Sequence record: PZ445489.1
DNA: 64,000 nt
Source of the DNA: a phage
Reading direction: 5' to 3' (one strand)
The translations under genes and the position numbers were made by a program. Below, one piece after another: positions 42,118 through 64,000 of the stretch (position 1 is the first letter of the stretch; each line of letters begins with the position of its first letter). Below the pieces are notes generated by a model, which was given only the letters and a program-made list of their open reading frames with translations, did not search any database and was not told where the DNA came from.

Positions 42118-44881
42118 CTAGCTCTGACATTGCTTCATCATGCATATGTTTTTCCTCGTCAGTCATGAACTTATAAGGAATTGGCATACACTCGATTTTA
42201 CAATAGGTTCTGTACCAGTCTACAATATTTTCAGTGTTCATATCCTTACCAATACCCATCATACCAAGATACATTCTTGCATATTTTGGGTTAGCACTCT
42301 GACCTGTTTTAAGGAAGAAATCTTTCTTCTTACCTTTCAGAGCTTCTATGAATGGTTTGATAGTGACATTTGAACACTTCTTAATATCTTCCCAGAACAT
42401 CTCGTGCATTTTATGGAAGAATGCCGCTCGATCATTCGGTTTATCCTTGATATACTGTTCAACATGCTCAACTGTTACATCTTTAATAGACTCAAGATGA
42501 TAATAGCGAACAAGAAGTAGTTTAGCTTCATACGCATCCGCATGACGTGGAGCACAATAATCCGGAGTTGAATGTAGAATAGCTTTGATTCGCTCTTCTG
42601 TGTATTCTTTACCAGCACCTTCAATAGTTCCCCAGCTTTCGCTGAAAATATCAATAGTTGCACCCTGATCAAGCAAGTAATAACGTAAAGTACTAGTATA
42701 GTTCCTAGATTCCAGCTCTCTGCGACGTGCGTATAATTGCTGTGCTAACTCCGGCCAACCTTCATCAATATTATATTGCTCAGAACCTGCAGAGAACCCA
42801 CTAGTGGATTTATCAATAAAATAATAGATATTCTGAGCACCACGGTCGCGCCTGATTGCTTGGAAACGCATGTTTGGCGCTTGGTTACTAGTTCTAGTGA
42901 TAACGAATACGTTATCAAAATAGTTGAAGTCAACACCACTCGTTACGGATGGACTACATAATAAGCAATCAATTTGTTGATCAATTAGCTCATTAGTTGT
43001 GTAATCCAGAATACGTCTAATATCTACATCAGATGTAGAGTTTGAGTGGATTTCCTTAACTAACGCACCCGTATTACGACGCAATGCCATGCCCTTCTCA
43101 TTCAGTTCATCTGGACCACAGTCAGATACTAGGATAGATTTCTCACCCATCTCTAGAGAAGTCTGAAGTGCAACCCAAATACTGGACTCATCAGGGAACT
43201 CATAAGCATGAGCTTTTGACAGCATTTTACGGTGATGATTGTAAAATGCAACCGGTTTATCAAACTCAATCAAAGAACCATATGCTTCAATTGTTTCTGC
43301 ACTAATATCCCCATCAGATAATATAATGATTTTTGCAGTTGCAAGAATGTCCCGAAGAACCTGAATACATTCACGACGTTGTTTAACAACCGGGGCGAAT
43401 AATAGGTCATTCATTACAGCGTCACATTCATCGATAAAGATTGCATCAATTTGACCAATAAAACTCTTGAACTTATGCAAAGAGTGAATAGTTGTGGACA
43501 TACGGTCAATAGCACCACGCTTAAAATTAAGCATATCTACAGACTTATCATATTGTCCTGCACTAAATTTCTTAGCATTTGAAGATACCAGTGCTCGAGT
43601 ATTGGTAATTGCTAAGAAATTACCTTTAATAACTCCTGAATCCAGCCAACGCACAACCGCTGTAGTTTTACCTGTACCTAGACTTGCTTTTACAAAAGTC
43701 ATATAACCTTCTGGTGGCACGGTATTTAATTTCAAGAAGTTATCAGTTTCTAGAGAATTAGTTTCTAGCTTTTTAAGTGGAATACCTTTTAAAACATCTG
43801 GTATATCACGTTTAGAATTATTAACAAACGCTTTCAGAGCCTGTTTACGACCGTTGTTAAAATAATCTTGAATATTACGACTATTATCTTTAGTTGCAAT
43901 ATACTCAGATAAAGCTGGGCGGATCTCCTTCTCTAGCCAGCCAAAATCTACACCATCCTCTAGTGCTCGGTGATAGAGTTTAGGAATAATACGTAGATAT
44001 ACACCATCCTCAGCTTCTTCTAATTCGCTGATAGTTTCCTCTACTTTATCAGAGGCAGCTTTTTTACCTTTAATTTGGTCGAGTAAAGAATAGAACTCCT
44101 CCTTAAACTCACCTCTAGTTGTTTCATAGTCAACTAGATTATTAGGTAAATTTACTTTTGAGCCTTTAACAAATACCAGACGTGAAGTACCCTCCGCTTT
44201 AAACGGATCTACTATACCATCAGTAAATAAAGGATCTGCAAAGTAATGGAGCTGTACGGAAGAGTAATAAGCTAAGTCGGCAATATCAAAGCCATACTTT
44301 TGTCTACTACTTTCGTTGATAGATGTAAATAAGAACTTGATTTGACCCTGAGTTACTTTAACATTAGATTCTAGTATTAAGTGCATTCGGATACCTGGTT
44401 TTAGCCCAGCCGAAGATGACGCATGAGCGATAAACCCTGCATCAAGAGGAAACATATCCTCACTAATACTATTTAACATCCTAATAATATGTCGAGCCAT
44501 GCCAACAAGATCAAACTTGTTACAACCTCCTGTATCTACAATACCATCCACATCCATTGCGATTATATGACTTGGATTAGATACATTAAAGTTGCCCTTC
44601 TTACGTCGCACATTATTTTTAGGTGCAAGACATCGACCTCGTACCGCAACGATATGAGGGTCAGACGTTAAACGTCTCATAAGAGGAAGCATTTCTACTA
44701 GGGTTTGAGGATCAACTTCATCAATTACATCAAACTTGAAGGGCATTGAAGCTGGTTTACCTTCAGGATGCTTTGAGGAAAATCTTTTAGCAAAAAGATA
44801 ATCTTCTGCTTTAACTTCTCGCCAATTGCCTGTGGCTAAATCGCGATGAAATCCTGCATGACCTTGTAGGATTGAAAACAC
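42092..44881 (-). CDS. Large replication-associated ATPase/helicase (origin-binding-protein-like)
   Basis: Walker A ASLGTGKTT and Walker B AIFIDECD; start placed at GTG with AGGAG 7 nt upstream (track gives TTG at 44959). Confidence 0.6.
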   Translation of the reverse strand: MFSILQGHAGFHRDLATGNWREVKAEDYLFAKRFSSKHPEGKPASMPFKFDVIDEVDPQTLVEMLPLMRRLTSDPHIVAVRGRCLAPKNNVRRKKGNFNVSNPSHIIAMDVDGIVDTGGCNKFDLVGMARHIIRMLNSISEDMFPLDAGFIAHASSSAGLKPGIRMHLILESNVKVTQGQIKFLFTSINESSRQKYGFDIADLAYYSSVQLHYFADPLFTDGIVDPFKAEGTSRLVFVKGSKVNLPNNLVDYETTRGEFKEEFYSLLDQIKGKKAASDKVEETISELEEAEDGVYLRIIPKLYHRALEDGVDFGWLEKEIRPALSEYIATKDNSRNIQDYFNNGRKQALKAFVNNSKRDIPDVLKGIPLKKLETNSLETDNFLKLNTVPPEGYMTFVKASLGTGKTTAVVRWLDSGVIKGNFLAITNTRALVSSNAKKFSAGQYDKSVDMLNFKRGAIDRMSTTIHSLHKFKSFIGQIDAIFIDECDAVMNDLLFAPVVKQRRECIQVLRDILATAKIIILSDGDISAETIEAYGSLIEFDKPVAFYNHHRKMLSKAHAYEFPDESSIWVALQTSLEMGEKSILVSDCGPDELNEKGMALRRNTGALVKEIHSNSTSDVDIRRILDYTTNELIDQQIDCLLCSPSVTSGVDFNYFDNVFVITRTSNQAPNMRFQAIRRDRGAQNIYYFIDKSTSGFSAGSEQYNIDEGWPELAQQLYARRRELESRNYTSTLRYYLLDQGATIDIFSESWGTIEGAGKEYTEERIKAILHSTPDYCAPRHADAYEAKLLLVRYYHLESIKDVTVEHVEQYIKDKPNDRAAFFHKMHEMFWEDIKKCSNVTIKPFIEALKGKKKDFFLKTGQSANPKYARMYLGMMGIGKDMNTENIVDWYRTYCKIECMPIPYKFMTDEEKHMHDEAMSELGARNDSEE

Positions 44882-45380
44882 AACAATACTCCTGTATTGG
44901 AAATGAAATAAGTTTTCTTTAGGACTATTCAGAAAGAATAGAACAACTGTTACTGTCAATTTCTCAACAAATTAATCGCAAATACTGAAGGGGGGTGGCA
45001 ACTTCCCCTTTCACGCTACACTGCCGCTTCACTATACCGCACAAATCCTTGAGGATGGCCGCTAAGCCAGATTTGCTCACCTAATGCTTCATGTACTAGC
45101 TCATACTAGATGTAGTATACCTTACGTCATCACTTCTCAGAGTTTTTCACTCTTCCCGTCTCACTTCACAACCACCTCACACTAGGTTGCTTCGAGGCCT
45201 TACCAGGGTTCCTACGGGATGTAGATCGCTAAGTATTCTATTAACTATTTGTTTAAAAACTAACACGTAACAGTTAAAACAACCCTTAATGGGGCAGCCT
45301 AACTGTTCCGTATCGCGGATTGTAAACAAGAAAAATTAGCAAAATCAATTTTTACTAATGTCTCTCAATTCAATATAAAT

Positions 45381-45409
45381 ATTATATCAAGATTTTGGGC
45401 ATCATGCAA
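45381..45409 (-). promoter_or_regulatory. Early promoter driving a ~400-nt ORF-free transcript region
   Basis: TTGCAT-17 nt-TATAAT with conserved downstream box; no start codon or RBS follows for ~480 nt. Confidence 0.55.
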
Positions 45410-45449
45410 GTAAAATTTTCCGGATGGTGCTATCATTGGTCTTGAGTAC

Positions 45450-45478
45450 GGATAAAACCGAGCCAAAATGACTCGGTT
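45450..45478 (-). terminator. Rho-independent terminator at end of Sir2-containing operon
   Basis: ACCGAG-loop-CTCGGT hairpin followed by TTTTA on - strand. Confidence 0.6.
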
Positions 45479-45485
45479 ATGTGGA

Positions 45486-45683
45486 TTAGACACTTAAAAT
45501 ACTTCTAATCTCTTCTATATACTTATCTACTTTTTTAGCATCTACTTTATTTAGTTTTCCTATATCAAAACTAGGATCAGTAAACATTCTAGCTATCTCT
45601 ATCTCTAGAGACTTACTAATTTTCCCTGTAGTATTCCACTTAGAAATCTTACCTTTTATTTTCCAAAATTCCTTATTCATCAT
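45486..45683 (-). CDS. Hypothetical small protein
   Basis: 65 aa, Lys-rich; last ORF of the operon. Confidence 0.4.
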   Translation of the reverse strand: MMNKEFWKIKGKISKWNTTGKISKSLEIEIARMFTDPSFDIGKLNKVDAKKVDKYIEEIRSILSV

Positions 45684-58861: not shown

Positions 58862-59377
58862 ATGGCTAAGCAGAAAAACGCAAAAACTCAAGCAGCTACT
58901 ACAGTTAAAACTTTCCCGCAGACTGAGGCTAACCGCAAAGCTCGTCTGGAACGCCACCTGCGCAAGCACCCTACTGATGCTCAAGCTGCACAGGCACTGA
59001 ATCGTCCGGCTCCGATTCGTCAAAAGCCGAAGGCTAAGAACGCTACTCGTTCTGTAGCCCGCCTTGTGACCTATGTACAAGGTTATGGTCACAAATCTGT
59101 TCCAGTAACACTGAGTTTCAATGCTGGTGCAGAATTGTTCCCTCGTAATGGCATGGCCATGAAAGATTACGAGAAAGCAGTTAACCAGAAACGCAAACCA
59201 ACGGCAGATGTACTGCGTGATGCTCGTGGACAGTTTGGTTCTGTTAAGCCAAATATCTTCGGTGTAGAGTATAGCAAAGATAACGTTCGTGCTCTGTGTT
59301 ACGGTGTAGGCATTAAGTTCACGGGTGATTCTGCTCGTAAATCTGCTAAACCAGCTCGCAAGCGTAAAGCGAAGTAA
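58862..59377 (+). CDS. Hypothetical basic protein (possible nucleic-acid-binding)
   Basis: 171 aa, Lys/Arg-rich, host-optimal codon usage suggesting high expression. Confidence 0.5.
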   Translation: MAKQKNAKTQAATTVKTFPQTEANRKARLERHLRKHPTDAQAAQALNRPAPIRQKPKAKNATRSVARLVTYVQGYGHKSVPVTLSFNAGAELFPRNGMAMKDYEKAVNQKRKPTADVLRDARGQFGSVKPNIFGVEYSKDNVRALCYGVGIKFTGDSARKSAKPARKRKAK

Positions 59378-59441
59378 TAGATAAGTAGGGGCGAAAGCCC
59401 CTACAATCTACTAATTCTCTAACTAATCAAGGATATTTTTT

Positions 59442-59657
59442 ATGTTCTCTAAGAAACCACGTTCTGTTACTGAAATCGTTGCTTCCTTTACCACTATCAC
59501 TGATGAGCTTCAAGCTCGTATTGAGGCTGATCAAAAAATCGCAGCTGATATTCAGAAACAGCAGGAAGAACTCGCTTTAAAGTTGGCTGAAACTAACAAG
59601 AGTGAAAAGTCTGCCCAAACTATTATGGAAAATATCCTTAAACTGCTGGGCAAGTGA
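59442..59657 (+). CDS. Hypothetical small coiled-coil protein
   Basis: 71 aa ORF flanked by GNRA-type hairpins. Confidence 0.45.
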   Translation: MFSKKPRSVTEIVASFTTITDELQARIEADQKIAADIQKQQEELALKLAETNKSEKSAQTIMENILKLLGK

Positions 59658-59963: not shown

Positions 59964-60665
59964 ATGAAAGTAAAACCATTTGGTATGCTAGATATTGAAT
60001 CTCTAGGAACTCCGGGAGATTGTGGTACTACTCATATTGTAATGCCTTCTTTCGCTTTTGTGGCTATGCATGGGATTGATAAAGACCCTGATCTAGTGTT
60101 TGTTACTTTAGATGTACAAGATCAGCTTAATTCTGGAGCTAAAGTTACGGCATCTACTCTAGCATTCTGGATGGATCAAGCTAAACATAGCCCGTCTGCT
60201 ATCCACATTATGGAAGCTATGAAGGAACGTAATCCAAAACTGATTGCCTTCCAAAATGGTAAACATCATTGCACTAATAAACTCGGCTCTAACTATGCTG
60301 CCTTCTCTATGGCTAAAAACATTATGGAATTGGCTCTAGGCGACAATGCTTTGTACTATGGCAATGGCCCAGAGTTTGATATGACTATCTACTCTGCAAA
60401 TACGTTCCATGCTGGAACCAATGAAGAGGTAGTTCCGTGGAAATTCTGGAATTTGGGCAATGTTCGATCTCTTCGTAATCTCTGGATGCAAGCTGGATAC
60501 AGTTATAAGGCTCTAGAGACCGAAGGTATTAGCTGGGCAATAGCTAAAATGGAGAAGATGGACACTATTCGTTATGGGATCTATCCGGTTAAGCATGATC
60601 CTGCATTTGATGCCTTAGTTGAAAGCTATTGTGTTGCAGCTATGATCGAAAAAATGAAAATTTGA
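59964..60665 (+). CDS. DEDDh-family 3'-5' exonuclease (DexA-like)
   Basis: 233 aa; N-terminal MLDIESLG (D-x-E) and C-terminal HDPAFDA (H-x4-D). Confidence 0.55.
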   Translation: MKVKPFGMLDIESLGTPGDCGTTHIVMPSFAFVAMHGIDKDPDLVFVTLDVQDQLNSGAKVTASTLAFWMDQAKHSPSAIHIMEAMKERNPKLIAFQNGKHHCTNKLGSNYAAFSMAKNIMELALGDNALYYGNGPEFDMTIYSANTFHAGTNEEVVPWKFWNLGNVRSLRNLWMQAGYSYKALETEGISWAIAKMEKMDTIRYGIYPVKHDPAFDALVESYCVAAMIEKMKI

Positions 60666-60666
60666 T

Positions 60667-60695
60667 TTGCTTCCGGCCCCAAAATTCTGTATAAT
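60667..60695 (+). promoter_or_regulatory. Early sigma70-type promoter
   Basis: TTGCTT-17 nt-TATAAT with downstream TTCATAAATTTGAGA box. Confidence 0.65.
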
Positions 60696-60735
60696 ATATT
60701 CATAAATTTGAGAAAACAATAAAAGGAAAACAAAT

Positions 60736-60918
60736 ATGCCAGTATCTAAAAATGTTCGTAAAAATGGTAAGAAAGCTACTCGTAATCTGGGTATCCGTCG
60801 TATGGCTGAACGTCAATCAGGTATCCAGAAAATCTTTGATCTGCTAAATCGTGCTAATCCTAAAATTGATAACAGTAACGATACTGTTCTGCGCACTCTG
60901 CTGGCAATTGGTCTGTAA
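60736..60918 (+). CDS. Hypothetical small basic protein
   Basis: 60 aa ORF directly after promoter. Confidence 0.4.
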   Translation: MPVSKNVRKNGKKATRNLGIRRMAERQSGIQKIFDLLNRANPKIDNSNDTVLRTLLAIGL

Positions 60919-60971
60919 TAGACCAAATTTAAACAAATTCAAATCTCAAACTTCATATAAGGAAGCAAATA

Positions 60972-61610
60972 ATGACTACTCGTATCTCTAAAACTCGCGC
61001 TCTGGCAACTATCAAATCTCTGGAAGCTAAAATCCGTAAAGCTACTGAACAACAGCTTCTGATCGCTGTTGGTGAAGGTAAGGATAAAAATAAGGTTGTA
61101 GTTGGCGCTGCAATCGAAGTAGACGATCTATCTGCTCGTATTAAGGCAGATTTCCAGTCTCTGCTGGATATGATGTCCCAGCGTGATCGTATCAAAGCTG
61201 CTCTGATTAAGAGCAATGCGGAAACAATCGTTGAGATTGGCTCTCGTAAGATGACTGTTGCGGAAGCAATTGAAGCTAAGCGTTCTATGGAACTTAAAGC
61301 TCAACTGCTGGCTAACATGCGTAAGCAGTTCCATGCTGCTACGGTTAAGTTTAACACGCAGAAAGTACAGTTTGATGCTAAATATGAGCGTTTGCAGGAT
61401 AGCATGGCTACCCGCGATAAGAAAACTTCCGAAGATGAAGTTAAAATGCAGCTCAACCTGCTGGAACTCAAGAATACTCCATTCTTGATTGATCCGCTGG
61501 AACTGGAGAAGCTGATTAAGCAGCATGACGAGGAATATCAGGACTTTGCAACAAATGTTGACTTTGTTCTGTCCGAGTCTAACGCCTCTACCTTCATTGA
61601 AGTAGAGTAA
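60972..61610 (+). CDS. Hypothetical protein (coiled-coil rich)
   Basis: 212 aa, host-optimal codon usage, AGGAAG RBS. Confidence 0.5.
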   Translation: MTTRISKTRALATIKSLEAKIRKATEQQLLIAVGEGKDKNKVVVGAAIEVDDLSARIKADFQSLLDMMSQRDRIKAALIKSNAETIVEIGSRKMTVAEAIEAKRSMELKAQLLANMRKQFHAATVKFNTQKVQFDAKYERLQDSMATRDKKTSEDEVKMQLNLLELKNTPFLIDPLELEKLIKQHDEEYQDFATNVDFVLSESNASTFIEVE

Positions 61611-61993
61611 TAATTTAAAAGCTAGTAAATCGGTAGACGAAAGCCCAAGCATCTTACCTCGCAGCAGCGGTTGAAATACGAGGTTAAATAAGACCGCTGA
61701 CCATACTATAAGGTATAATCTATTGGAGATTATGTTTATTACATCAGACATTTAATCTGACACGTAAAAACAAAGCGTCGTTGATATTACCGACACAACT
61801 TCAAAGATCAACATTTAAGTATGAAAGCTGAAAAGTTTAAAGAACTCAAACTTCTAAACTTCTAAAGCTAAAAGATGCAAAGTATTCGTTGATGATTCAA
61901 ACCCTAGATCAAAGGTACATGGCTCATAAGATATGGCCTGTGGCGCCTCTAGGCTGTTTATCGGTTTACTAGTTTCACAATTTAAAAATGTAT

Positions 61994-62022
61994 TTGCTAA
62001 TTTACTAAATTATATGTATAAT
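61994..62022 (+). promoter_or_regulatory. Early sigma70-type promoter
   Basis: TTGCTA-17 nt-TATAAT. Confidence 0.6.
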
Positions 62023-62052
62023 ATATTTTTAAATTGATGAAACGAGGCTATT

Positions 62053-62370
62053 ATGACTTTTCATATTTTGATTGATGATGTGCGTAATCTTCACGGAATG
62101 GACATTATCATTCGAACCCCAGAAGCCGCTGTCGAGTTTCTGAATAAAACTGATACCACAGGCCACTTCGTTTATATGGATAATGACTTGGCTGTAGATG
62201 GTATGGAAGGTTATCAAATTCTTCGTTTACTCTTAGAATTTGGGCAGAGACCAAAGAAAGTGGTACTAGTAACCTCGAACCCAGTAGCTAAGCAACATAT
62301 GCGTAATGATTTGCTTGACTTAGGGTACAAAGAAAACCCCAATCGTGTTGAATATGATTGGCAGGAGTAA
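62053..62370 (+). CDS. Standalone receiver (REC/CheY)-like domain protein
   Basis: 105 aa; ILIDDV, VYMDNDL...GMEGYQIL and VVLVTSNP segments resemble response-regulator receiver motifs. Confidence 0.4.
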   Translation: MTFHILIDDVRNLHGMDIIIRTPEAAVEFLNKTDTTGHFVYMDNDLAVDGMEGYQILRLLLEFGQRPKKVVLVTSNPVAKQHMRNDLLDLGYKENPNRVEYDWQE

Positions 62371-62375
62371 AAAGA

Positions 62376-62825
62376 ATGAAGGCAGCTTTGCTTTTAGTAG
62401 CTGCCCTTACCTTCAGCTTTAGTAGTCAGGCATCGCACGATGCAAAAGAAATAGATTGCATTGCTAAAAATATCTATTTCGAAAGTCGTGGTGAGGGCAT
62501 AAAGGGAATGACGGCGATTGCACACGTTACTAAAAACCGTGTAAACTCCGGTAAATTCCCAGATTCCTACTGTAAAGTAGTATATCAGTCTAACCAGTTC
62601 TCTTGGGTATCTAAGAGACCAAAAGTTGATAAAACTGATGAGGCTTGGCAAACCGCTAAGAATTTAGCTAGAGTGATATACTACGTTGATTTACCACAAG
62701 ATCCTACACATGGAGCACTATACTTCCATAGTGGTAAAGATAAACCTTACTGGACAAAGAAGTTTAAGAAAACAACTAAGATTAAGGGACATACGTTTTA
62801 TAAACCTGTTGTCACTAAAACTTAA
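62376..62825 (+). CDS. Secreted cell-wall hydrolase-like protein (SleB-type) with signal peptide
   Basis: N-terminal MKAALLLVAALTFSFSSQA signal peptide; IAKNIYFESRGEG...AIAHVTKNR...QFSW core; AGGAG RBS. Confidence 0.55.
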   Translation: MKAALLLVAALTFSFSSQASHDAKEIDCIAKNIYFESRGEGIKGMTAIAHVTKNRVNSGKFPDSYCKVVYQSNQFSWVSKRPKVDKTDEAWQTAKNLARVIYYVDLPQDPTHGALYFHSGKDKPYWTKKFKKTTKIKGHTFYKPVVTKT

Positions 62826-62833
62826 AAATTTAC

Positions 62834-62862
62834 TTGCTTAAATACTTAAATTTCCGTATAAT
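62834..62862 (+). promoter_or_regulatory. Early sigma70-type promoter
   Basis: TTGCTT-17 nt-TATAAT. Confidence 0.6.
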
Positions 62863-62893
62863 ACTTCCATAAATTAATGAGAGGAAGCGAAAT

Positions 62894-63063
62894 ATGAAAT
62901 CAGTTGTAATTATTGGTGTTAACACTCGCGGTATTCGTACTACGAAAATTGTTAAAACTTCTAACGTTGCTGAGATCACTACGAACCCTAAAAAGTTTGA
63001 TTTCGCCAAAGTCTCAGCAGTTATGACAGAACAATCTTTTAACCAAGCGTTAGGAATGAAATA
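62894..63063 (+). CDS. Hypothetical small protein (56 aa, below ORF-track cutoff)
   Basis: ATG with GAGGAAG RBS after promoter; stop overlaps next ATG. Confidence 0.3.
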
Positions 63064-63544: not shown

Positions 63545-64000
63545 ATATTCATAAATTAGAGAACAGCGAGCCGATTACGCTGAACTTGTCTTAATGTAAG
63601 ATGCGTCGAGCACTAAGATTCGTTGAATAGAGTCGGTAGGTTAGTTGTAAAACTAGTACACAGGGGGCGGCAATCCCGGTTAGTGGCTAGAACGTGTAAA
63701 ATGAGGCGTCTGAAACCTCTCCCCTAAACTCTTCTCTAATTTATAAATAGTGGGGTGTGGAAATCACTTATGTAGTAACACTGCCGTCCTAGTATAATTG
63801 GTATTATCAAGCCGTAACTGGTGGAAGATATAGATTCGAATCCTACGGTCGGTAAGAACTGGATAACTGATGCTTTTAACGTAAAAGCTTCCGAGGTTAG
63901 TTGCGCACTGCCTAAACCACGCGGTAGTTGGTTCCAGGCTAACCAACCAGTCTGCTGAATAGTTTTATTACGATTTAACTATGTCCAGGCTAAAGAAGAA

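Follow-up and report, generated by a model that had tools for sequence, protein, structure and literature searches.

Why does a T5-like phage (Tequintavirus) maintain an apparently empty gap in its otherwise gene-dense early region? The gap lies at positions 61611-62052 of the DNA analysed here, a stretch of 64,000 nt from the sequence record PZ445489.1 (the window), between the stop codon of a T5.085-type gene (61610) and the start of the next gene (62053). The plus strand of the window corresponds to the minus strand of T5, and at the equivalent positions of T5 (43063-43504, 98% identity) the GenBank annotation contains only the promoter of T5.084; the tRNA cluster starts just downstream of the T5.084 homologue. 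An original prediction, which listed hairpins and repeats in the gap, offered an origin, a protein-binding region or a small RNA as explanations. Its interpretation stands in part, for the RNA and not for the origin. We have high confidence that the gap contains a structured RNA element under selection, and we consider it probable that this element encodes a structured, non-coding RNA approximately 357 nt long (61619-61975, plus strand) as a gene of its own. The small-RNA option was thus right in kind, and the predicted hairpin and tandem repeat belong to this RNA, but it is not small: a single RNA takes up most of the gap.

The gap is more conserved than its surroundings. Among 29 distinct genomes of T5-like phages and Epseptimavirus its nucleotide diversity was 0.028, versus 0.055 and 0.054 in two flanking genes, and its substitutions lack the 3-nt codon periodicity seen in these genes. 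Positions 61602-61720 are nearly invariant, with a diversity of 0.005 in the first 110 nt, which is below the diversity at second codon positions (0.010-0.018). At least 80% of the gap is covered in 437 phage records. In a Vequintavirinae-like Klebsiella phage, 70% DNA identity was found over positions 61798-61964, while its T5.085 homologue is only about 39% identical at the protein level. Poor conservation in relatives, which had been named as an argument against a function, does not apply here, since the gap is conserved above the flanking coding sequence.

All features listed by the original prediction were found in the gap: the 7-bp hairpin CAGCGGT/ACCGCTG, the tandem repeat AAACTTCT in two copies (61848-61863), the promoter of the next gene, which is annotated in T5 too, and the inverted repeat GTTGAT/ATCAAC (61780-61785 and 61807-61812). 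However, the long-range pairing of this inverted repeat is probably not real; relatives support a local hairpin of 61780-61785 with 61789-61794, by which we replaced it (H3 in Table 1). When the region was shuffled 500 times with preservation of dinucleotides, perfect 7-bp hairpins turned out to be near chance level (3 observed, 1.6 expected, p=0.22) and 6-bp hairpins to be mildly enriched (13 versus 5.5, p=0.03), while the tandem 8-mer appeared in none of the shuffles. The non-randomness of the region is a matter of comparative evidence, not of hairpin or repeat counts.

Folding of the plus strand of the RNA region gave a minimum free energy (MFE) of -98.5 kcal/mol (z=-5.4; minus strand, z=-3.7), and the MFE structure includes the helices P1, S2 and P5 listed in Table 1. 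The RNA begins 9 nt past the stop codon of the T5.085-type gene. Its other end is indicated by Salmonella phage 8sent65, in which a 538-bp cassette with a homing-endonuclease gene (L032 1866-2403) is inserted exactly at 61974/61975 and leaves the RNA intact; this insertion marks the 3' edge and shows that the spacer between RNA and promoter is dispensable.

The two ends of the RNA are joined by the closing helix P1. Its register was fixed solely by the sequence anchors CG/AAA and GGC/UG (the slash marks the end of the helix) in 51 distinct homologues. Pairing was possible in 78% of the cells, compared to 51.5% in shuffles and 31-48% in slid controls, and the covariation score of 0.69 (versus 0.22) was reached by none of 500 shuffles. 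Two-sided changes occurred in 14 of 16 pairs. The top pair is G.U in 50 of the 51 homologues, and the many G.U and U.G pairs are valid on the plus strand only, which suggests a helix of RNA and not of duplex DNA.

P1 is followed by an H-type pseudoknot formed by the stems S1 and S2, the latter corresponding to the 7-bp hairpin mentioned above. S2 equivalents of other sequence are located at the same place in a Pectobacterium phage (GCCAC/GUGGC), in EC152 (CGAGG/CCUCG) and in a Vibrio phage (AGCGGU/ACCGCU). Of 52 unique homologues, 46 contain such a pseudoknot, which in nearly all of them begins 14-20 nt (mostly 18-19 nt) past the P1 anchor and differs in sequence. The observed scores were reached by approximately 3% of the shuffles.

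Three hairpins follow in the variable region. H1 and H2 have counterparts of other sequence in the relatives given in Table 1, and the H2 pair A61748-U61756 is replaced by C-G among T5-like relatives, which is a compensatory change. H3 is a perfect GUUGGU/ACCAAC hairpin in Epseptimavirus, and Klebsiella and Enterobacter phages have a local UCGAAU/AUUCGA hairpin at the same place. As a separate observation, the source phage carries a G at position 61712, where 28 of 28 compared relatives have an A; this position lies in a single-stranded linker just 5' of H1, in the near-invariant 5' third of the RNA.

The variable region is followed by an array of A-rich heptads, two units of which make up the tandem repeat of the original prediction. 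Among 56 homologues the sequence identity was 0.425 at lag 7 and 0.394 at lag 14, with a baseline of about 0.22, and in bacterial copies the lag-7 identity was 0.46-0.52. The spacing of ARAG motifs peaks at 7, 14 and 21-23. In about half of the lineages the array could be followed over its whole length by simple chaining; there it comprises approximately 90-106 nt and 13-15 units. A long-range pairing of 61800-61812 with 61888-61900, suggested by a repeat search, was rejected because it is not conserved in the Klebsiella phage.

The 3' domain is built on helix P5, which pairs in 99% of the cells and shows a covariation of 0.74 versus 0.21 (71 distinct sequences). In a test which relied on sequence anchors alone, 63 of 106 candidates were paired, compared to 5 of 106 after shuffling of one arm. 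The inner hairpin P6 covaries (GGC/GCC, AGC/GCU, AGU/ACU), and the inner helices of this domain differ among subfamilies. All five features of the proposed family are present in the window: the CG/AAA...GGC/UG closing helix, the H-type pseudoknot, the AAAGNUY array, the AAAYCC...GGCUG domain and the location directly 3' of a phrog_1491 gene, the family to which the T5.085 homologue belongs. As a side note, the GGCGCC at 61943-61948 in the 3' domain fits the consensus Pu-GCGC given in the T5 record for single-strand interruptions; no nick is annotated there in T5.

Table 1. Features of the gap and its two flanking genes (positions in the window).
Feature	Position	Strand	Basis and remarks
Partner protein gene (T5.085 homologue), 212 aa	60972..61610	+	Open reading frame; phrog_1491, E=4e-82
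Whole structured non-coding RNA, ~357 nt	61619..61975	+	Limits given by the 5' and 3' strands of P1
P1, closing helix, 5' strand	61619..61639	+	21 bp with 61955-61975; ends in conserved C-G, then AAA
Pseudoknot stem S1	61656..61684	+	ACCUCG 61656-61661 with CGAGGU 61679-61684; Predicted independently by RNAalifold on 9 relatives, compensatory changes
Pseudoknot stem S2 (7-bp hairpin of the original prediction)	61665..61699	+	CAGCGGU 61665-61671 with ACCGCUG 61693-61699
Variable-region hairpin H1	61715..61733	+	AUAAUCU/AGAUUAU, read from the sequence; AAUCUC/GAGAUU at the same place in a Pectobacterium phage
Variable-region hairpin H2	61744..61760	+	UCAGA/UCUGA; CGGA/UCCG in Pectobacterium, CCGCA/UGCGG in Klebsiella phages
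Variable-region hairpin H3	61780..61794	+	GUUGAU/ACCGAC; 5' arm shared with the inverted repeat of the original prediction
Array of ~14 tandem A-rich heptads	61797..61898	+	Consensus AAAG-N-U-Y (position weight matrix)
3' domain	61899..61956	+	AAAYCC, helix P5 (61903-61908 with 61948-61953), inner hairpin P6 (GGC 61921-61923 with GCC 61936-61938), GGCUG
P1, closing helix, 3' strand	61955..61975	+	Starts U-G directly after conserved GGC; part recovered independently by RNAalifold
Sigma-70 promoter of the next gene	61994..62022	+	TTGCTA-17-TATAAT, 10/12 matches; annotated in T5 (43067-43141); outside the RNA
Downstream neighbour (T5.084 homologue), 105 aa, cREC (cyclic-phosphate processing receiver) domain	62053..62370	+	Pfam PF20274, E=1.5e-14

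The RNA is found far beyond close relatives of T5. Unannotated stretches of 340-480 nt are present 3' of T5.085 homologues in Pectobacterium and Vibrio T5-like phages, in Seunavirus, Otagovirus, Bacillus phage Bcp1 (Herelleviridae), Salmonella phage 7-11 and an Erwinia jumbo phage, and also in 80 IMG/VR loci; their alignment revealed a shared architecture on the strand of the gene. With R1, a covariance model of the 3' domain that matches many loci outside its seed alignment, exactly one match was obtained on the strand of the gene and a few hundred nt downstream of it in 90 of 94 loci, nearly all of them from phages. The whole 64-kb window contains a single R1 match, which is located in the gap, and a 349-kb contig that harbours two copies of the protein also has two of the RNA. 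In bacterial contigs (one genome per species) the RNA was detected downstream of the protein gene in 75 of 80 loci, the carriers including Lysinibacillus, Brevibacillus, Paenibacillus, Bacillus, Clostridia and filamentous cyanobacteria. In Solibacillus and Tepidibacter the unit consists of gene, RNA and terminator among ordinary chromosomal genes, and a terminator or a tRNA closes the RNA in several phages.

The same association was recovered by a DNA pattern scan of IMG/VR that was blind to the protein. It returned 80 loci; the P5 signature was present in 14 of them, and all 14 are directly preceded by the phrog_1491 gene or, where the locus is cut there, by the 3' end of this gene, whereas the 64 apparent chance matches have neither. 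The RNA in the T5 gap is a member of a very widespread family, which is inherited together with the upstream phrog_1491 gene as a two-part cassette. That RNA and protein are also obligately coupled in function is, in our opinion, likely.

What is known about the partner protein? It has no match in Pfam, NCBIfam or PADLOC. In its AlphaFold2 model (predicted local distance difference test score 90.7) it is a long hairpin of helices, the tip of which is a small conserved beta-sheet. Sequence and fold searches in the PDB gave no fold match at E<0.001, the best being the uncharacterised protein 3kdq (E=0.009), and a BFVD fold search returned uncharacterised phage proteins only. The family comprises 3347 clusters at 50% identity, with a length of approximately 205-215 aa, and is essentially unfused (1 of the 150 clusters listed is longer, 286 aa). 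Its database label "tail fiber protein" seems to be a propagated mis-annotation, because T5.085 is an early-region gene, the predicted fold is a helical hairpin and solitary homologues exist in bacterial chromosomes.

The genomic surroundings of the cassette often include tRNA genes, and other genes related to RNA occur there as well. Of 78 viral loci, 33 have tRNAs at most 1 kb away, and in Vequintavirinae the RNA abuts tRNA-Thr. In filamentous cyanobacteria (loci L305, L311, L313, L319 and L323; ~50-1165) the cassette closes long tRNA arrays; the preceding 1.1 kb contains 6-14 tRNA genes, the last of which is usually tRNA-Thr (tRNA-Met in L319). Calothrix desertica PCC 7102 is among the genomes in which a tRNA array ends with the cassette. 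Such cyanobacterial L-arrays were described as operons which are switched on under translational stress and which have genes for RNA processing beside them (PMC8421152). In Salmonella phage 7-11 (L039 787-1491) the gene abutting phrog_1491 on its upstream side contains a ProQ/FinO RNA-chaperone domain (Pfam, 36.8 bits, E=4e-9). The neighbours in T5 include an Rv2179c-like 3'-5' exoribonuclease, the cREC protein and a YqeY-like protein. A conserved third gene was not found, as the upstream neighbours vary between phages and ProQ/FinO occurs in phage 7-11 only; likewise, the cREC gene is a conserved neighbour of the module only in T5-like phages, and other phages have different neighbours.

In a minority of members the variable region of the RNA itself holds inserted modules, namely a permuted tRNA mimic, T-arm-like pieces or whole tRNA genes. 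They are located at 2253-2316 in Erwinia phage Rebecca (L040), at 1745-1800 in L114, and approximately 95-170 nt past the stop codon in L076 and L077. The Rebecca module is matched by the YrlA model RF02553 with 44.5 bits (E=7e-7), which is below the gathering threshold.

How could such a module be expressed and function? The RNA would most likely be made as a 3' extension of the early T5.086-T5.085 transcript, since there is no terminator between gene and RNA and a promoter of its own is not evident. No terminator-like site was detected in the region 60500-63000: the hairpin at 61665-61699, with its 21-nt loop and without a U tract, does not qualify as a Rho-independent terminator. A candidate promoter inside the RNA (TATAAT at 61714-61719) was rejected, as it has no usable -35 region. 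Together with the phrog_1491 protein, the RNA would assemble into a ribonucleoprotein (RNP), in which protein protomers would bind the regularly spaced heptads, one per 7 nt, and the closing helix, the pseudoknot and the 3' domain would form the scaffold. A physical RNP with the heptads as binding platform is a tentative proposal, possible rather than probable.

The proposed geometry has precedents. The trp leader with TRAP, the hut mRNA with HutP, and CsrB or RsmZ also present many single-stranded motifs of 3-4 nt at fixed spacing. The HutP sites consist of NAG motifs with 4-nt spacers and therefore have the same 7-nt period as the heptads, and TRAP and viral nucleoproteins, the latter with 7 nt per protomer, are further examples of similar geometry. 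In contrast to these systems, the motif in the gap RNA is AAAG and not UAG, GAG or GGA, its approximately 14 units are embedded in a closed scaffold, and no TRAP, HutP or CsrA homologue is linked to it; binding to the heptads is putative here.

A particle of this kind would probably act in a conflict or stress related to tRNAs or translation, although we regard a role connected to tRNAs or translation as somewhat doubtful, less likely than the RNP itself. Taken together, the module may represent an unrecognised, widespread RNP class, a suggestion we make with reservation: an RNA of approximately 330 nt with about 14 single-stranded AAAGNUY heptads and a helical protein of approximately 210 aa, which polymerises on the heptads or rings them, would form a two-gene cassette that moves among unrelated virulent phages (Demerecviridae, Vequintavirinae, Herelleviridae, Otagovirus, jumbo phages and others) and the chromosomes of Bacillota and cyanobacteria, prefers tRNA arrays and acts in translation- or tRNA-centred stress or in the conflict between phage and host.

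In our best reading this RNA-protein module is undescribed, the RNA matching no Rfam family and the protein none in Pfam, NCBIfam, PADLOC or the PDB. No description of the RNA was found in the open-access full texts searched, so that a description elsewhere is possible. The small RNAs (sRNAs) of phage PAK_P3 (PMC4933390) were considered as relatives and seem to be unrelated, PAK_P-like phages being absent among the protein matches listed.

If the interpretation is correct, it is important for several reasons. T5 is a classical model phage, and yet a highly conserved segment of its early region has stayed unannotated. A new family of large structured RNAs would be joined by a new protein family of more than 3000 clusters at 50% identity, without relatives in Pfam, PDB or Rfam. 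Further, it would be clear why an "empty" gap of 300-500 bp is found again and again, in phage genomes by the hundreds, the widely propagated "tail fiber protein" annotation would be corrected, and tRNA arrays of phages and bacteria would be concretely linked to an RNA-protein module. Last, the heptad array offers a simple biochemical handle, and T5 genetics permits direct tests.

Several points weigh against the proposal of an RNA gene and its RNP. Adjacency alone does not prove a complex, and the observed layout would equally fit a purely cis-acting 3' untranslated region (3'-UTR). The fold of the phrog_1491 protein has no characterised relative, and the protein could act on something other than RNA. 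The classical stable-RNA maps of T5, as annotated in GenBank, list several RNAs nearby and none in the gap. In addition, the pseudoknot statistics come from a custom search compared to mononucleotide shuffles and not from a curated alignment, MAFFT having failed to align this region. Finally, the analysis of the 3' domain is partially circular, as its instances were first chosen by a rule that requires pairing and the R1 alignment was fitted to P5; the anchor-only control and the R1 matches outside the seed reduce this concern but do not remove it.

Among the alternatives, the one that survives best is that the conserved sequence is just the 3'-UTR of the T5.085 (phrog_1491) mRNA, which acts purely in cis, either by protecting the mRNA from 3' exonucleases or as a site of autoregulation, with no separate function as RNA or particle. 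It agrees with the location of the RNA, always directly 3' of the gene and on the same strand (in T5 9 nt past the stop codon, with no promoter of its own in evidence), and with the terminator that follows the RNA in several phages and bacteria, according to which gene and RNA form one transcription unit. We nevertheless consider it rather unlikely. A 330-nt architecture with a pseudoknot, a helix joining the ends and approximately 14 heptads is far more elaborate than known 3' stabilisers. Moreover, whole tRNAs are embedded in some members, and their excision by RNase P and RNase Z would separate the RNA from the mRNA; processing of the tRNA which the RNA abuts in Vequintavirinae would likewise release it. 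It should be noted that this alternative overlaps with the proposed RNP, because autoregulation via binding of the protein would itself involve an RNP.

Much less probable is a highly divergent member of a known RNA class, such as transfer-messenger RNA (tmRNA), Y RNA/YrlA, RNase P RNA or ROOL/GOLLD, which escapes the current models. A search with the 4227 covariance models of Rfam 15 (cmscan, E<=10) gave no match inside 61611-62052. The core was not matched either in the corresponding gaps of 27 further loci from phages and bacteria, where only inserted tRNA- or YrlA-like modules were found, with scores below the gathering threshold. ARAGORN detected no tmRNA in the window or in the related loci, and the Rfam tmRNA models also had no match in the gap.

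The resemblance to tmRNA and its partner SmpB concerns the size of approximately 330-360 nt (~350 nt in tmRNA), the long closing helix leading into an H-type pseudoknot, the single-stranded A-rich tract, the small dedicated protein and the location in phage tRNA regions. The order of helix and PK1 known from tmRNA is indeed found here, P1 being followed after 16 nt by the pseudoknot, but this is a resemblance only: the conserved core of the gap RNA has no tRNA-like domain, no CCA end, no resume codon and no tag-encoding reading frame, no SmpB gene is linked to it, and its partner is a member of a different, uncharacterised family.

The similarity to YrlA (RF02553) with its partner Ro60/Rsr consists in a long closing stem of paired ends, a modular interior and a dedicated partner gene adjacent to the RNA. 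YrlA, too, occurs in bacteria and phages, is linked to contexts of RNA repair and tRNA, and some members of the gap-RNA family carry a permuted tRNA mimic recognised by RF02553. However, this model matches only the tRNA-like module (model positions 23-87) of two distant members, with 44.5 and 28.3 bits compared to a gathering threshold of 69. The T5 member has neither such a module nor an RF02553 match, the gap RNA is approximately three times longer, and Y RNAs lack the pseudoknot, the heptad array and the AAAYCC...GGCUG domain of its core. A TROVE (Ro60/Rsr) gene was not found among the neighbours of the gap (phrog_1491, cREC, cell-wall hydrolase, exoribonuclease).

Other known systems are more distant. 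ROOL and GOLLD are also large structured RNAs of phages and prophages, often beside tRNA genes, but they are approximately 580-800 nt long, have no obligate adjacent protein gene, and their Rfam models do not match here. They form protein-free homo-oligomeric cages (PMC12286853). With type III toxin-antitoxin systems (ToxIN, CptIN, TenpIN) the module shares the cassette of a protein and a repetitive RNA, the occurrence in phages and bacterial chromosomes, and a terminator as part of the unit. In those systems the antitoxin repeats are 34-45 nt long, located upstream of the toxin gene and cut by the toxin, in contrast to the 7-nt units of the gap RNA, which are downstream of the gene and inside a large structured RNA; PADLOC and PDB fold searches with the phrog_1491 protein revealed no ToxN/AbiQ-type toxin. 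The stable RNAs of T5 (I, III, IV, X, 1, 2, 2H and 3) are, like the gap RNA, uncharacterised non-coding RNAs encoded in the early region, inside the tRNA cluster or beside it. Unlike them, the gap RNA is conserved far beyond T5-like phages, and there is no sign of relatedness.

Could the conserved sequence act as DNA, for example as a replication origin, a packaging or nicking site or an iteron-like protein-binding array, as the original prediction had partly proposed? The region is AT-rich (GC 0.30-0.37), contains tandem short repeats, and its GGCGCC (61943-61948) matches the T5 nick consensus Pu-GCGC. Still, this is very improbable. When the suggested GC-skew analysis was performed on the window, no turning point was found at the gap; the cumulative skew climbs steadily over 58-64 kb and turns at approximately 22-24 and 50-52 kb. 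DnaA boxes do not cluster at the gap, which contains a single DnaA-box-like site, with one mismatch and inside the promoter; over the window such sites are fewer than expected from shuffles. The repeat units measure 7 nt and lie on one strand, whereas iterons have 17-22 bp. The G.U and U.G pairs which maintain the helices, including the near-invariant one in P1, correspond to A.C mismatches on the other strand, and a pseudoknot topology and a helix of two strands approximately 320 nt apart have no rationale in DNA. In addition, the element keeps one orientation with respect to the upstream gene throughout, a terminator or tRNA is located at the 3' end, and the same element exists among ordinary genes of bacterial chromosomes. 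The origin option was therefore abandoned.

In this context, a different region should be mentioned. A mechanical scan for open reading frames (ORFs) of at least 80 aa revealed a stretch of 713 nt without such ORFs at 44960-45672, so that the gap is not strictly the longest one, as had been claimed. This stretch is located near the start of the T5.108 homologue ("replication origin binding" in T5), and T5 has a 470-bp unannotated gap in the same region (59074-59544). If an origin-like region exists in the window, 44960-45672 is a better place for it.

The weakest alternative, that the gap holds small protein genes or a decayed gene and is conserved as coding sequence, can be dismissed almost completely. 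PHANOTATE-based records annotate "hypothetical proteins" here, an ORF of 34 aa (61933-62037) and an antisense ORF of 207 aa (61128-61751) are called in some annotations, and mechanical ORFs of 27 and 34 aa exist. However, the substitutions show no codon periodicity, the ORFs are conserved in close relatives only while the RNA helices are conserved beyond them, the 34-aa ORF overlaps the promoter and is split by the homing-endonuclease insertion in phage 8sent65, and the 207-aa ORF is antisense to a conserved gene.

Two minor observations were made outside the gap. In an uncultivated phage contig, a partial match to a group I intron (RF00028, 41.7 bits, E=2e-7), cut by the end of the locus (L090 1-154), is located approximately 850 nt upstream of the phrog_1491 gene. 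In the window, where ARAGORN called no tRNA over the whole 64 kb, a tRNA-like sequence is present at 63783-63854 on the plus strand (Rfam tRNA model, 22.3 bits, gathering threshold 29). It falls in the region matching the T5 "RNAX", a stable RNA of 719 nt, and a relative is annotated with a pseudo-tRNA at the equivalent place.

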